Assembly: GCA_903850545.1 (NCBI GenBank)
Contig: CAINLW010000037.1
Span: 14,813 to 38,812 of the forward strand
Length of the DNA stretch: 24,000 nt
Origin: an uncultured bacterium
GTDB lineage: Bacteria > Patescibacteriota > Minisyncoccia > Phycocordibacterales > GWA1-40-21
Direction of reading: 5' to 3'
Shown here: piece after piece, positions 8,454-12,266 of the stretch
Numbering within the stretch: position 1 is the first letter of the stretch
How the letters are laid out: each line of letters opens with the position of its first letter
The notes under the pieces: model-generated
What the model saw: only the letters and a program-made list of their open reading frames with translations
Told to the model about the DNA's origin: nothing
Database searches by the model: none
Made by a program: the position numbers and the translations under genes

Positions 8454-8738
8454 TTACAATATTTTTTCAACTTTTAAATAATCATCCTGAGAATTTGGCA
8501 TGTTAGCAACAATATTTTTTGTATTTACTCCAGTTTCTGTTGGATTGTTATCCTCCCTAACCACATTTCTTAACTCCCCAGCAACTTTGTTTTCTACCAT
8601 TGAAGACGTAATATCTTTTAGTTGTGCAACGTATTCCAAAATTGAATCCGCTTCTTTTGGCAGTTTTTCTTCTTCCTCTTTTGTTAGAGTAATTCTAGCA
8701 AGTTTGGCTAATTTTTTAATATCATCTGTTCCCAACAT
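8454..8738 (-). CDS. gatC: Glutamyl/aspartyl-tRNA amidotransferase subunit C
   Basis: 94 aa. DIKKLAKLARITLTKEEEEKL...VREDN is typical GatC. It is adjacent to gatA. Confidence 0.85.
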   Translation of the reverse strand: MLGTDDIKKLAKLARITLTKEEEEKLPKEADSILEYVAQLKDITSSMVENKVAGELRNVVREDNNPTETGVNTKNIVANMPNSQDDYLKVEKIL

Positions 8739-8867: not shown

Positions 8868-9371
8868 TTACATCGCGATTGGTTTCGCGGTGTAGCTGGG
8901 AGCAAGACCAGCCGACCCCACTTCGCTCAGACCCGCCTCGGTGATTTCATATGCACCCTGACACTTATTAAGCTGGTCTAGATCCGAAAAAACAACTCTT
9001 AACTTCTTGATGTCTTCCCTGAAATGAGCCTGGTCGGGACGCTGTCTGACTGGTTTGCCCGGAGAACAACAACCTCTACTTTCGCGACCAATCATCTTGC
9101 CGGCTCGCATCTCGATAAGATCGAGGTGTTTCACCAAGCCGTCTTTTGCCATTTTGGGAAGTGCTGCCCGGACTCTCTGTTCCAGTTCAGACGCAATCCT
9201 CTGAGGTGTAATTCTCCCTTTATCAAACCCGTACCTTTCACACTCCCTCAGCATGAGGCCTTTGATCATCTTAATCGCCTCTTTCGACTGAGCTATTATG
9301 TTAGCAACTACCGGAACCAAAACCGGCCTTCCGGGATACTCAGCCAACGCCTTCAATATTAATTTTCTCAT
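8868..9371 (-). CDS. Hypothetical protein (167 aa), last cassette of the hammerhead operon
   Basis: The start is reassigned to ATG at 9371 (MRKLILKALAEYPG...), 8 nt after GAGAGGGAG. The longer ORF-track version (to 9470) reads through the hammerhead and leader. G+C is much higher than in flanking genes. A possible winged-helix-like segment (LPKMAKDGLVKHL) is only a guess. Confidence 0.7.
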   Translation of the reverse strand: MRKLILKALAEYPGRPVLVPVVANIIAQSKEAIKMIKGLMLRECERYGFDKGRITPQRIASELEQRVRAALPKMAKDGLVKHLDLIEMRAGKMIGRESRGCCSPGKPVRQRPDQAHFREDIKKLRVVFSDLDQLNKCQGAYEITEAGLSEVGSAGLAPSYTAKPIAM

Positions 9372-9446
9372 ATGTTTTCTCCCTCTCAACCTGTTCTTGC
9401 AAATCAGGAATATTTTACGAGAAGCAAATAAATCAAAGAACATTTT
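9372..9446 (-). promoter_or_regulatory. Conserved post-ribozyme leader module, copy A
   Basis: Minus strand: AAAAATGTTCTTTGATTTATTTGCTTCTCGTAAAATATTCCTGATTTGCAAGAACAGGTTGAGAGGGAGAAAACAT. It shares ATGTTCTTTGA, CGTAAA and TCCTGAYTYGMAAGARCAGGT with copies B-E. GTTCTT can pair with AAGAAC. Confidence 0.6.
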
Positions 9447-9496
9447 TCTGTTTCGTCCTTTTGGACTCATCAGTCGAAACTACACTTCGAGACAGA
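9447..9496 (-). ncRNA. Hammerhead ribozyme, type III (HH-A)
   Basis: Minus strand: TCTGTC|TCGAA-GTGTAGT-TTCGA CTGATGA GTCC-AAAA-GGAC GAA ACAGA. All core nucleotides are present (CUGAUGA, GAA, A15.1, GUC site). Predicted cleavage is between 9491 and 9490. A 5-bp hairpin GGGAA/TTCCC (9497-9517) abuts it upstream. Confidence 0.85.
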
Positions 9497-9530
9497 GGGA
9501 ATTTTATGAGATTTCCCAAACTCTTTACTA

Positions 9531-9908
9531 TCACTTTACCCACGGACACTTAACCAGCGAAGTCTTCGACGTTGACCAATAAGGCTTCGGTGCCTCCATC
9601 AATCCTAGCTTTACAAAACGCCGGTGAAGATCATCCATCAAAGACATTAGGTGTCCCCTGACAACTGTTCCATTCGTCTTGTACTCTCGCGCTATATTCA
9701 CTATTGTCATAGGGGTGGGATTGTCCCCAAAAGACTTGTAGGCTAAGTGAAATTTCAACAACTTTGCATACAACCCGTAGCCAAACTTGGTGCTTCCAGG
9801 AAGTCTTTTACCTTTTTTCTCTAAGGCACAATACTCCATATATATTACAAGCACAGCTTCCTTAACATCGGCGGAATTTACCACTTCGAACATGTTAATG
9901 TTGCTCAT
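9531..9908 (-). CDS. Hypothetical protein (125 aa), possible HTH
   Basis: The ATG at 9908 is preceded by AAGGGAAG. The segment MTIVNIAREYKTNGTVVRGHL looks helix-turn-helix-like (a guess). It lies between HH-B and HH-A. Confidence 0.65.
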   Translation of the reverse strand: MSNINMFEVVNSADVKEAVLVIYMEYCALEKKGKRLPGSTKFGYGLYAKLLKFHLAYKSFGDNPTPMTIVNIAREYKTNGTVVRGHLMSLMDDLHRRFVKLGLMEAPKPYWSTSKTSLVKCPWVK

Positions 9909-9979
9909 ATAATATCTTCCCTTTTTCTCACCTGCTCTTTCAAGTCAGGAATTATGAGAATTAAAATCAAAGAACATTT
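9909..9979 (-). promoter_or_regulatory. Conserved post-ribozyme leader module, copy B
   Basis: Minus strand: AAAAATGTTCTTTGATTTTAATTCTCATAATTCCTGACTTGAAAGAGCAGGTGAGAAAAAGGGAAGATATTAT. Confidence 0.6.
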
Positions 9980-10031
9980 TTCTGTTTCGTCCTTTTGGAC
10001 TCGTCAGTCGGAAACATATTCCGAGACAGAA
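9980..10031 (-). ncRNA. Hammerhead ribozyme, type III (HH-B)
   Basis: Minus strand: TTCTGTC|TCGGA-ATATGTT-TCCGA CTGACGA GTCC-AAAA-GGAC GAA ACAGAA. Stem I shows a compensatory change relative to HH-A. Predicted cleavage is between 10025 and 10024. The upstream hairpin is AGAGAA/TTCTCT (10031-10051). Confidence 0.85.
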
Positions 10032-10187
10032 GAGAAATTTACGTATTCTCTGTTCGCTTATGCGACGGTGAGTTTCAAACTCACAATCTAGGATTAACCT
10101 TCATCCTTGATTAGTAAGGTGTGTTAAAATTCATCTTTATAACAAGTCTTAACACAAAAAACCCCATTTTCTTAACTAGACAAACTC

Positions 10188-10607
10188 CTAGGTGATTATT
10201 TTGACCTCTCCCCTTTTGTGATCAAAAATCCCCACGGTGCCATTTTTGAAATTGACACCAGTCAAATGCTCCAACACCGGCTGATGAGAAACAACAATTA
10301 TTGAGACGCTGCATCTTTCTATCTCTCTCATTGTCTCCCAATGGTCTGAATTATCACAATCAAGATGATCGCGTGTTTCAAGAGACACTTTGCACTTTTT
10401 GTCTGACTTGATTAACACCTTTTTAATAATATCAGCTGTTTCCACCGCCCTCTGAAGAGGAGAGGTTATAATAAGTACAGTCCCTTTTATTATTTTGGCG
10501 ATATGCTCACCAGCCATTGTCGCCTGTGCCTTTCCATTATCATTCAGACCATTACCACGATCTTCACCGTGGCGAACAAGAAATACCTGCTTCAATACTT
10601 TAAGCAT
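10188..10607 (-). CDS. Histidine phosphatase superfamily protein, SixA-like (139 aa)
   Basis: The start is reassigned to ATG at 10607 after AGAGGGA. It carries the VFLVRHGE (RHG catalytic motif), SPLQRAVETA and VVSHQP motifs in the order and spacing of SixA-type phosphohistidine phosphatases. Confidence 0.75.
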   Translation of the reverse strand: MLKVLKQVFLVRHGEDRGNGLNDNGKAQATMAGEHIAKIIKGTVLIITSPLQRAVETADIIKKVLIKSDKKCKVSLETRDHLDCDNSDHWETMREIERCSVSIIVVSHQPVLEHLTGVNFKNGTVGIFDHKRGEVKIIT

Positions 10608-10674
10608 AAAGTTTCCCTCTTTCTTCAACCTGTTCTTTCGAATCAGGATTTACAAAGACCAAAATTTTAAAGAA
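10608..10674 (-). promoter_or_regulatory. Conserved post-ribozyme leader module, copy C
   Basis: Minus strand: ATGTTCTTTAAAATTTTGGTCTTTGTAAATCCTGATTCGAAAGAACAGGTTGAAGAAAGAGGGAAACTTT. Confidence 0.6.
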
Positions 10675-10725
10675 CATCTCTGTTTCGCTCTTTTGAGCTC
10701 GTCAGTCGAAGCTACACTTCGAGAC
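10675..10725 (-). ncRNA. Hammerhead ribozyme, type III (HH-C)
   Basis: Minus strand: ACTGTC|TCGAA-GTGTAGC-TTCGA CTGACGA GCTC-AAAA-GAGC GAA ACAGAG. Stem II covaries (GCTC/GAGC versus GTCC/GGAC). Predicted cleavage is between 10720 and 10719. The upstream hairpin is GGGAAT/ATTCCC (10726-10747). Confidence 0.85.
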
Positions 10726-10789
10726 AGTGGGAATTTTTATAGAGATTCCCGGAACTCTTTAGGATTTTTTGTTTTTACGCGGTAATCCA

Positions 10790-11093
10790 AACCGCATCAG
10801 ATACAGGTTCTATTAGGATAGGAGCAGTTTTGTTCGCTCACCTATACGCTTTAGTTTCCTTTACCTGCAAAATATAGTGTGATGGTCAGCTATGCCAAGT
10901 TTCTGACCCTGGAGTTTAACCGACAACTGTTCCTTGCTCTGCAGAGCTAAGGATGGCGCATTCGGCACAAGACTTCTATAGAGTCCTATGCGCACCAGTC
11001 ATCGGCCTCCCTTCATCTAACTCCCTCCATCCGAGGCCAGTTTGATGTTTGCACTTTTTAAAGTGCTGGTGCTTTAGAGATCACACGTCCCTG
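10790..11093 (-). ncRNA. Candidate structured non-coding RNA cassette between HH-D and HH-C
   Basis: No ORF of 60 aa or more exists on either strand across 10786-11048, and the minus-strand frame that I translated by hand carries 8 stops in about 105 codons. G+C is comparable to the neighbouring coding cassettes. There are many local hairpins: GGTGC..GCACC, GCACTT-taaa-AAGTGC, GGCCTC..GAGGCC, GCGCAT..ATGCGC enclosing AGGACT/AGTCTT, CCTTaGCTC-tgca-GAGCaAGG, GGTCAG..CTGACC and GCGGT..ACCGC. Confidence 0.35.
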
Positions 11094-11096
11094 CAC

Positions 11097-11171
11097 CATT
11101 TTCTTCAACCTGCTCTCTCAAGTCAGGATTTTTTACGAAGAAAATTATTAGAATTTATTCAAAGATCATTT
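11097..11171 (-). promoter_or_regulatory. Conserved post-ribozyme leader module, copy D (no strong SD, followed only by a 13-codon ORF)
   Basis: Minus strand: AAAATGATCTTTGAATAAATTCTAATAATTTTCTTCGTAAAAAATCCTGACTTGAGAGAGCAGGTTGAAGAAGAAA, followed by ATGGTGCAGGGACGTGTGATCTCTAAAGCACCAGCACTTTAA. Confidence 0.5.
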
Positions 11172-11234
11172 TCTAGTTTCGTCTTGCCACCTTGTGATGG
11201 AAGACTCATCAGTCCGACTCAGTCGGAGACTAAA
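11172..11234 (-). ncRNA. Hammerhead ribozyme, type III, extended stem II (HH-D)
   Basis: Minus strand: TTTAGTC|TCCGA-CTGAG-TCGGA CTGATGA GTCTT-CCATCACAAGGTGGC-AAGAC GAA ACTAGA. Stems I, II and III all differ in sequence from HH-A/B/C but keep their pairing. Predicted cleavage is between 11228 and 11227. The upstream hairpin is CGAGGAT/ATCCTCG (11235-11255). Confidence 0.8.
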
Positions 11235-11240
11235 CGAGGA

Positions 11241-11303
11241 TTAATTAGATCCTCGGGCGCTGTAGGGTTGTCCCCGACAGCGTACTTGGTTGTACATTGT
11301 CAT
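11241..11303 (-). CDS. Micro-ORF, 20 aa: MTMYNQVRCRGQPYSARGSN
   Basis: The ATG at 11303 lies 7 nt after GGAG. It is a paralog of the 18-aa ORF upstream. Of 8 substitutions across the first 13 codons, 5 are synonymous third-position changes. Confidence 0.6.
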   Translation of the reverse strand: MTMYNQVRCRGQPYSARGSN

Positions 11304-11362
11304 ACTATCTCCATTCTCTACCTGTTCTTTCGAATCAGGGTTTACGAGAGTTCAAAGAACGT
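11304..11362 (-). promoter_or_regulatory. Leader module, copy E (the only copy without a hammerhead in front)
   Basis: Minus strand: GACGTTCTTTGAACTCTCGTAAACCCTGATTCGAAAGAACAGGTAGAGAATGGAGATAGT. Its GTTCTTTGA box supplies the stop codon of the upstream micro-ORF. Confidence 0.55.
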
Positions 11363-11408
11363 CGTCGCCAGGTTGCCCCCGGCAACGCACTTCGTCGTAC
11401 ATTGCCAT
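11352..11408 (-). CDS. Micro-ORF, 18 aa: MAMYDEVRCRGQPGDDVL
   Basis: The ATG at 11408 lies 4 nt after AAAGGAGG, the best SD in the window. It is the first reading frame of the island operon and is paralogous to 11241..11303. Confidence 0.6.
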   Translation of the reverse strand: MAMYDEVRCRGQPGDDVL

Positions 11409-11510
11409 AAGGCCTCCTTTTCTATCTGATAACAGAATATCATTAATTGCAATAATGTGTTGTAAAATATGACTATTTGTAAAAGATAATTAAGAAAACG
11501 CAAAATAGGC

Positions 11511-11552: not shown

Positions 11553-12266
11553 ATGGAATATTCAAATGCATTACAACGTTTAGGACTATCGCTTAAAGAG
11601 TCCCAAATATACGAGACCTTATTAGATAAAGGTTCTTTAAGCATGATAAAACTATCCCAGATAACTGGAATTAACAGACCTGCACTTTATATTTTAATTC
11701 CGAAAATGATAAATAAAGGGTTAGTTATTGAGACAAAAAAAGGTAAGAGGATTGAGTATATTGCTTCCTCCCCTAATAAACTTGAGCCCTTAGTCAAAAA
11801 CGCCCAACAAAGTCTTGAAAATATAGTCACCAATTTAAATACTGAATTTTCTAAAAAACAGCTTGTTCCAAAAATTGAAACTTACTATGGTAAAGATGGA
11901 ATAATTAAGGTGCTTATGGATATTGTCACAACTCTAAATAAAGGGGATACATATTATCGTTACAGTATTAAAAAAATATCTGACAAATTTCCTTTGCCAA
12001 AAGAATATTATAGATTAAGAGATGAAAAACAAATTGAACGTTTAGTTATAGCTAGCTCCGAAGTAGCAAAAAGAAAAAAACCAGACTTAAATGAAACAAT
12101 TAAAATATTAAAAGGTAGCTATGATGGTTTTAATGCGACAAAAAACATTTATGGAAATAAAATTGCCTTTACAGATTATGAAAATGAGGTAGCTTTTATA
12201 ATCTACAACGAAAAAATGGCTAAACTAGAAAAAGAAATCTTTCTGAATTTGTACAAAACACTCTAA
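11553..12266 (+). CDS. TrmB-family-like transcriptional regulator (N-terminal winged HTH)
   Basis: LQRLGLSLKESQIYETLLDKGSLSMIKLSQITGINRPALYILIPKMINKGLV matches the TrmB-type HTH pattern. It is the only credible plus-strand gene in the window. Confidence 0.7.
   Translation: MEYSNALQRLGLSLKESQIYETLLDKGSLSMIKLSQITGINRPALYILIPKMINKGLVIETKKGKRIEYIASSPNKLEPLVKNAQQSLENIVTNLNTEFSKKQLVPKIETYYGKDGIIKVLMDIVTTLNKGDTYYRYSIKKISDKFPLPKEYYRLRDEKQIERLVIASSEVAKRKKPDLNETIKILKGSYDGFNATKNIYGNKIAFTDYENEVAFIIYNEKMAKLEKEIFLNLYKTL

Follow-up and report, generated by a model that had tools for sequence, protein, structure and literature searches.

What fills the space between two self-cleaving ribozymes when no gene lies there? 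The question is raised by a minus-strand operon in the 24,000-nt stretch of DNA analysed here (the window), which comes from an ultra-small bacterium of the Patescibacteria with a genome of 985 kb (97% complete, 33% G+C). In a window of 33.6% G+C the operon forms an island of 41-47% G+C between gatC (8457-8738) and a divergent gene of the TrmB family, and it carries four matches to the type III hammerhead model RF00008 of Rfam, all on the minus strand (9445-9498, 9979-10032, 10677-10730 and 11171-11235). With its same-strand ribozymes at 9445-11235, the operon has three cassettes with genes of 139, 125 and 167-200 aa, each with an SD of the GAGGG/AGGGA type, and one unit of 505 nt without a gene. 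Comparison with PHROGs yielded two weak matches only, to families of unknown function, and the flanks of the operon are gatCA and the TrmB-like gene. A first-pass annotation, made from the sequence by eye, had suggested that the gene-less unit is either a functional RNA payload excised by its flanking ribozymes or a dead cassette.

Our own structural scan found a full catalytic core, a GUC cleavage triplet and three stems in all four hammerheads, which match the Rfam model at E-values from 1e-8 to 9e-6. Their scores lie below the gathering score of 48.5 bits, in part only just: 46.5 and 48.3 bits for the two sister ribozymes, and 37.9 and 38.0 bits for the two that bound the gene-less unit, HH-C and HH-D. 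To these two the model aligned over its full length (1-54), and both display the type III layout, in which loops cap stems I and II and stem III is left open; their cores read GUC, then CUGAUGA (HH-C) or CUGACGA (HH-D), then GAAA, as in the consensus CUGANGA ... GAAA. The body of HH-C (11227-11171) constitutes the 5' end of the unit, and HH-D opens the SixA-like cassette. Hammerhead cleavage leaves 5'-OH and 2',3'-cyclic phosphate ends, and self-cleavage of HH-C and HH-D is predicted to release a linear RNA of 505 nt. The annotation had placed the unit at 10720-11227 (508 nt); its bracketing by ribozymes and its high end are confirmed, whilst its low end moves by 3 nt, to 10723. All features are listed in Table 1.

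Table 1. Positions of the gene-less unit, its parts and neighbours in the window, and of a family of ORF-less cassettes in related arrays.
Feature	Position	Strand	Description
HH-C, 'head' type III hammerhead with long stem II (25 nt)	11171-11235	-	RF00008, 37.9 bits, E 8.7e-6; stems I/II/III of 7/5/6 bp; predicted to cleave after C11228
HH-D, type III hammerhead with short stem II	10677-10730	-	RF00008, 38.0 bits, E 7.7e-6; stems I/II/III of 7/4/4 bp; predicted to cleave after C10723
Excised unit, 505 nt	10723-11227	-	Ends predicted from hammerhead chemistry: 5'-OH at 11227, 2',3'-cyclic phosphate at 10723
A/U-rich spacer after ribozyme	11128-11170	-	Contains GAUCUUUGA, the local form of a GUUCUUU motif found after other hammerheads
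Leader hairpin CCUG-(11 nt)-CAGG	11109-11127	-	Common to coding cassettes; blastn matches to the leaders of cassettes 2-4 and of G017
13-codon ORF MVQGRVISKAPAL, without SD	11058-11099	-	Overlaps post-leader hairpin; sits behind GAAGAAA
Post-leader two-tier hairpin	11067-11098	-	UGGUGC/GCACCA around AGGGA/UCUCU; homologue in first cassette of G005
Hairpin GCACUU/AAGUGC	11051-11066	-	MFE stem
Composite hairpin	11014-11047	-	MFE stem
Central 101-nt three-way domain	10911-11011	-	Predicted fold; 38 bp, -44.9 kcal/mol
Hairpin GGUCAG/CUGACC	10884-10908	-	Predicted fold
Promoter-like site TTGGCA-16-TATATT (10/12)	10871-10898	-	Points to downstream cassettes; may be chance
3' domain	10777-10867	-	Long interrupted hairpin (10867-10798) and AUGCGGU/ACCGCGU hairpin (10797-10777); weak local fold signal
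3' cassette module	10723-10760	-	Small GGGAA/UUCCC-type hairpin, CACUGUC, 5' strand of HH-D stem III, cleavage site
TrmB-family winged-helix gene	11553-12263	+	PF01978, E 2.4e-10; divergent from operon; conserved partner of hammerhead arrays
ORF-less cassette family, G013	L044:5058-5489		432 nt
ORF-less cassette family, G064	L047:4495-4878		384 nt
ORF-less cassette family, metagenome contig Ga0172379_10030275	L113:3013-3472	-	460 nt

The unit starts as the other cassettes do, with the ribozyme body, an A/U-rich spacer holding a GAUCUUU motif and a CCUG-loop-CAGG hairpin, so that the leader module is indeed the normal one in spacer and hairpin, its SD part being missing. Its 3' end resembles that of cassette 3: a small hairpin followed by CACUGUC; this 3' module is common to cassette 3 and to the array of a related genome, G017 (blastn, 88% identity over 43 nt to G017; the hairpin was read in the sequence). 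Within the central three-way domain, the predicted fold has a 10-bp helix with G-U pairs closing two arms, one of the GCGCAU/AUGCGC type and one in which CCUU..AAGG surrounds GCUC/GAGC. Most, indeed nearly all, of the local helices picked out by eye recur in the MFE fold, some of them shifted by 1-2 bases and three (AGGACT/AGTCTT, ATAG and GCGGT) extended; GGCCTC/GAGGCC competes with another pairing there. The G+C level had been likened to that of the coding cassettes: at 47.5% across 10786-11048 it stands beside their 40.6-46.9% and is the highest of the island.

We examined the unit for a gene, intact or decayed. Neither strand has an ORF of at least 60 aa across 10786-11048, as had been noted, nor one of at least 50 aa. 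The body, earlier described as riddled with stops, contains 6, 6 and 8 of them in its three sense frames; composition predicts 6.2, so that the stops are at chance density. No codon periodicity was detected in the body (nucleotide-by-codon-position chi-square, p=0.38); the three coding cassettes reach p=4.5e-5, 0.015 and 0.012 by the same statistic. As every frame has all three stop codons, reassignment of a stop opens no frame after the leader, and a recoded gene was rejected. Searches by tblastx and tblastn against the 50-odd cassettes and proteins of 17 related arrays returned nothing in unit positions 130-460. Chance-density stops, the absence of periodicity and the absence of protein similarity together exclude a recently decayed gene, though not an ancient remnant; a recent pseudogene of a cassette protein was likewise rejected, no residual frame, periodicity, protein homologue or translated homologue having been found.

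Folding of the 341-nt body departs from chance on the transcribed strand, where it reaches -113 kcal/mol at z = -4.96 and 0/100 dinucleotide shuffles were as good; the opposite strand gives z = -1.86, a bias that fits the 10 G-U pairs among the 105 pairs of the fold. Pieces of the same length from the three coding cassettes have z of +0.17, -2.40 and -0.12. In 150-nt sliding windows, starts from 10851 to 11001 (bases of about 10850-11150) show a continuous z of -3.5 to -4.5, level with the ribozyme junctions, and the last (3') 80 nt of the body are weakly structured; most such windows in the coding bodies range from about +1 to -2. In related arrays, some cassettes that do carry good ORFs fold as strongly, at z of -7.6 and -9.9, and we therefore regard hairpin richness as a trait of the arrays that does not prove an RNA gene. 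Across the relatives the fold z-score failed to tell coding cassettes from non-coding ones, some ORF-bearing cassettes lying at -7 to -10.

No known RNA had been recognised in the unit by eye, and a search of Rfam 15 with the whole window and with the body alone likewise gave no family at gathering score; at E up to 10 the body produced only chance matches, on the wrong strand. ARAGORN identified no tRNA or tmRNA in the unit, and no evidence of an additional ribozyme class was found inside it. A candidate decayed hammerhead with leader, seen by eye at about 10779-10830, has no Rfam match, and its local alignment to junction modules falls within the shuffle range. Junction modules have no significant counterpart in the interior, which is therefore not a collapsed junction.

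Homologues of the body were sought widely. Its own genome contains none, the search for paralogues and antisense matches giving only A-rich 12-15-mers, and no target complementarity of the unit was found there. Apart from a 40-nt motif, none was found in 60 relatives, 400 genomes of the order and 400 of the class (about 850 Patescibacteria genomes); a single class-level match, 11 aa long and within a Mur ligase gene, was discarded as chance. Phages and plasmids yielded no homologue of the body, and exact 16-18-mers in IMG/VR were chance matches only. A model of the central domain that takes structure into account, derived from the single sequence and its predicted fold, recovered only the window's own copy from 53 family genomes and 32 array loci. 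Metagenome and genome-collection scans with a 17-mer of the head ribozyme were unspecific, with mostly chance matches and about 16 real hammerhead loci. Such orphan status is not unusual for the cassettes of this operon: its three cassette proteins have no tblastn match in the other arrays fetched, and among 5.8 billion proteins only three are related to the largest. The last cassette protein occurs in identical form on 13 + 5 public contigs, and relatives at 74, 68 and 59% identity lie on ENA contigs of 5104, 580 and 4260 nt.

The 40-nt motif comprises the first 40 nt of the body, and its homologue occupies the equivalent place in the first cassette of the closest relative, the congeneric genome G005 (local alignment z 5.3, above 60/60 shuffles); the head hammerhead of that array is 82% identical to HH-C over 76 nt. 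Both copies of the motif fold to the same two-tier hairpin with one compensatory pair, U-A to C-G, and a 1-nt indel between them breaks any shared reading frame. From two sequences, a hairpin kept without a kept frame is only a hint. After a comparable structured stretch, G005 has an ORF of 70 aa that the window unit lacks.

Similarly built hammerhead arrays are present in 12 of the family's 52 other genomes. Their first ribozyme usually has a stem II of 24-39 nt, most internal ones having 12 nt. A homologue of the TrmB-like gene lies 0.5-2 kb upstream of the first ribozyme in 15 of the 17 arrays fetched, that is, in all those with enough flank, and the window's own genome has only five paralogues of this gene; this distribution argues that the TrmB-like regulator and the array form one conserved system. 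Gene-less cassettes bounded by hammerheads recur in these arrays. One, in G017, is evidently empty (271 nt with leader and SD but no ORF), which indicates that deletion remnants do occur. The first cassettes of G005 and G064 contain 450-560 nt of strongly folded non-coding RNA, then a small ORF.

Three further ORF-less cassettes, from G013, G064 and a metagenome contig (L113), are homologous to one another across two genera (Table 1). In this family 21 of 81 predicted pairs keep their pairing through changes on both sides. It is defined by an extended CCUGCG...CGCAGG hairpin, long and with compensatory changes, followed by CUUGCAGG, which pairs with a downstream CCUGCA; the resulting long-range UGCAGG/CCUGCA pairing is invariant. 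The cassette family is present in 2 of 53 genomes of the bacterial family, and none of 401 genomes sampled from the order has it. Like the window unit, its members occupy the same slot in the same kind of array, are of similar length (384-460 vs 505 nt), lack an ORF, are hairpin-dense and bounded by type III hammerheads, and start with a hairpin of the CCUG...CAGG type. The window unit, however, has neither the extended CCUGCG...CGCAGG hairpin nor the UGCAGG/CCUGCA pairing; the defining pattern is absent from its genome, and blastn of the family to the unit found no similarity. Covariation supports the family and not the window RNA.

Taken together, these results suggest that the unit may be a structured non-coding RNA released by ribozymes from a TrmB-linked hammerhead array, a reading to which we assign a probability of roughly 45%. 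Of the two options first put forward, the RNA payload is favoured, because there is no recent gene and no Rfam family, because the fold prefers the transcribed strand, and because gene-less cassettes recur in related arrays, one of them conserved. The layout implies that minus-strand transcription of the operon would start from a promoter at about 11440-11500, with the TrmB-like gene diverging from it. HH-C and HH-D would cut co-transcriptionally, yielding the linear 505-nt RNA with its 5'-OH and 2',3'-cyclic phosphate. Ends of this kind are poor substrates for 5'-end-dependent RNases and for 3' exonucleases. The RNA would retain the standard 5' and 3' modules, with the same hairpins as those flanking the mRNAs, and the slot of SD and ORF would be filled by about 300 nt comprising the post-leader hairpin, two further hairpins, the 101-nt three-way domain and the 3' hairpin domain. 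This body would be the functional part and act as RNA; the processed species would be stable, and its binding partner is probably a protein or a second RNA of the system. As the genome showed no target complementary to it, we would sooner expect it to bind protein or to play a structural part than to regulate by antisense.

The alternative that survives best is that the cassette is dead or scrambled: its gene would have been lost long ago by deletion or rearrangement, and the remnant carried along between two functional junction modules, with a hairpin richness inherited from cassette RNAs that are structured in general. Because the body has no homologue outside the short motif and coding cassettes of relatives fold as strongly, this has to be weighed seriously; the missing SD, the empty cassette of G017 and the ORF that follows the structured stretch in G005 all point the same way. 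Yet a gene lost in this manner has left no trace of a frame, of periodicity or of protein similarity, the interior lacks significant likeness to junction modules, and the fold signal prefers the transcribed strand. The top G+C of the island, set in a window of 33.6%, argues against long neutral decay, as neutral sequence in a 985-kb genome would be expected to erode and be deleted. We consider this explanation rather unlikely.

An improbable alternative is that the unit serves the operon in cis: it might hold a promoter from which the cassettes downstream are transcribed, or might insulate the first mRNA from the regulated leader in folding or processing. The promoter-like site in Table 1 lies on the right strand for the former, but such sites number 11 in the region against 5.9 expected, about twice chance, so that a single one is weak support, and a promoter would take up about 40 nt, far short of 300 nt of helices. 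A role in cis would suit the position of the unit as first cassette behind the leader and head ribozyme, and the first cassettes of G005 and G064 also open with several hundred nt of structured non-coding RNA; cleavage by HH-D, however, severs the unit from the downstream mRNA and leaves it no 5' UTR role thereafter.

It is very unlikely that the unit works through one or more tiny peptides. The 13-codon ORF exists, as the annotation had stated, but it sits behind GAAGAAA and lacks an SD comparable to the GAGGG/AGGGA type of the coding cassettes, and its counterpart stretch in G005 is frame-shifted by the indel. The longest ORF of the unit (44 codons from a GTG start, 10995-10861) does have a GGAGG 10 nt upstream; it lies, though, within the most stable helices, its product has no match at E up to 0.001 among 1.84 billion (1.84e9) representative proteins, and the body shows no periodicity.

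The unit resembles the retrozymes and viroid-like hammerhead RNAs of eukaryotes (PMC6765202) in its length of a few hundred nt, in being structured and non-coding, and in its type III hammerhead boundaries; it differs from them in being single-copy and sitting in a bacterial operon. The ends left by double hammerhead cleavage can generally be joined by RNA ligases or by the reverse reaction of the ribozyme (PMC6765202), but an RNA that acts or spreads as a circle is hardly credible here and was disfavoured. Joining would bring the 5' strand of HH-D (CACUGU) together with the 3' strand of HH-C (ACUAGA) in a stem III of only 2 bp that cannot rebuild a hammerhead; the 97%-complete genome has no RtcB gene (the same search was positive in 10 of 14 control genomes); and no circular products were detected from bacterial clusters by Perreault et al. 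(PMC3088659).

Clusters of hammerheads that flank one gene or a short block of genes, in transcripts of bacteria and prophages, were described by Perreault et al. in 2011 (PLoS Comput Biol, PMC3088659), who reported genes, not structured non-coding RNAs, between the ribozymes. The role of such clusters was still largely elusive when reviewed by Weinberg et al. in 2019 (PMC6765202), the only proposal to date being the cutting of polycistronic mRNAs (PMC3088659). The general layout of the array is thus already known (PMC3088659), and the gene-less structured cassette is a novel form of it. The window array shares with those clusters several same-strand hammerheads per transcription unit, a long transcript predicted to be cut into single-cassette RNAs, and a variable gene content between ribozymes. 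It differs from them in that one unit is gene-less, all ribozymes are of type III, the host is a member of the Patescibacteria with a genome of about 1 Mb, no phage gene was recognised in the operon and its flanks, and a TrmB-like regulator is linked. In integron cassette arrays, too, a common promoter is followed by a series of units that vary, are mostly orphan and in some cases lack a gene. This likeness holds at the level of layout only: the boundaries in the window array are ribozymes and hairpins at the RNA level, not attC, no integrase was identified, and the partner gene is TrmB-like.

More tentatively, the hammerhead arrays of Patescibacteria might as a class be TrmB-linked cassette systems that carry both protein genes and structured RNAs of 400-500 nt released with protected ends; the window unit and the G013/G064 family would then be two members, and release of non-coding RNA one natural role of hammerhead clusters. 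Were the unit only a dead cassette, it would be an ordinary remnant in a known kind of array. If it is a folded RNA, the same hammerhead machinery can deliver non-coding RNAs, which would make it a natural counterpart of the synthetic ribozyme-guide-ribozyme design. A 505-nt candidate and a conserved sister family (G013/G064/L113) are now defined, and they bear on how fast-changing accessory genes are organised in ultra-small, host-dependent bacteria.

We identified a conserved family of hammerhead-bounded cassettes without an ORF, whose members measure 384-460 nt and come from two genera and one metagenome contig. Across the family, compensatory changes lie within a long CCUGCG...CGCAGG hairpin and a UGCAGG/CCUGCA pairing is invariant; none of the three members listed in the table received an Rfam-type annotation here. 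An 'empty' cassette was also found in a related array of genome G017, in which hammerhead, spacer, leader hairpin and a good SD are followed by no ORF and then by the 3' module, the small hairpin at the cassette end. This cassette looks like a deletion remnant. In the gene-less unit of the window, a sigma-70-like site is oriented toward the downstream cassettes. It may be a chance occurrence, as 11 such sites were found in 3 kb against 5.9 expected.

Positions of the array features in the window and in related loci (L, fetched loci; L113, metagenome contig Ga0172379_10030275)
Feature	Position	Strand	Remark
ORF-less cassette family member	L044:5058-5489	+	genome G013
ORF-less cassette family member	L047:4495-4878	+	genome G064
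ORF-less cassette family member	L113:3013-3472	-
'Empty' cassette, G017	L045:5291-5561	-	271 nt, no ORF
First hammerhead of the window array	11171-11235	-	long stem II
GUUCUUU(G/A)A motif, examples	about 10668-10674, 9969-9975, 9435-9441
GAUCUUU version of the motif	about 11160-11166
TTGGCA-16-TATATT site	10871-10898	-	10 of 12; inside the gene-less unit
Last cassette ORF	8868-9470	-	200 aa from first ATG
Untranslated tail, SixA-like cassette	10033-10187	-	155 nt, A/T-rich, ahead of next hammerhead
Two micro-ORFs	11241-11408	-	head of operon
TrmB-family winged-helix gene	11553-12263	+	adjoins the array

The hammerheads themselves fall into two subtypes, told apart by the length of stem II. A long, sequence-conserved stem II (24-39 nt, e.g. 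GUCUUCCAU...) is usual in the first ribozyme of an array, as seen in the window and at L043, L044, L046, L047, L048, L050, L052 and L056, and also occurs in some internal ribozymes, most of which have a stem II of 12 nt. The motif GUUCUUU(G/A)A lies 15-25 nt after the hammerheads of the window and likewise after those of most fetched arrays, with variant forms, among them GUUCCUU and GAUCUUU, in a few cases.

Among the coding cassettes of the window, the last probably has its true start at the ATG at 9371, behind GAGAGGGAG, giving 167 aa; the database copy of its protein and three ENA relatives (59-74% identity) span only the last 84%. The tail of the SixA-like cassette lacks the conserved 3' hairpin module that is present in cassettes 1 and 3. 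Every cassette RNA in the organism's own genome (G000) should have a 2',3'-cyclic phosphate as its terminus, yet the search for RtcB (PF01139) across this whole 97%-complete genome found no gene.

At the head of the operon, the two micro-ORFs read from the sequence share the residues VRCRGQP, and the only differences between the two sets of seven codons fall at five third positions, a pattern suggesting that the predicted peptide is under selection. Upstream of the first hammerhead, homologues of the TrmB-family gene were present at 0.5-2 kb in 15 of the 17 fetched arrays (L043-L059). The organism's own genome encodes five TrmB-family paralogues (contigs C37, C63, C30, C29 and C41), and its hammerheads occur only at C37, C29 and C20. 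The TrmB-family regulator and the hammerhead array look like one conserved system.
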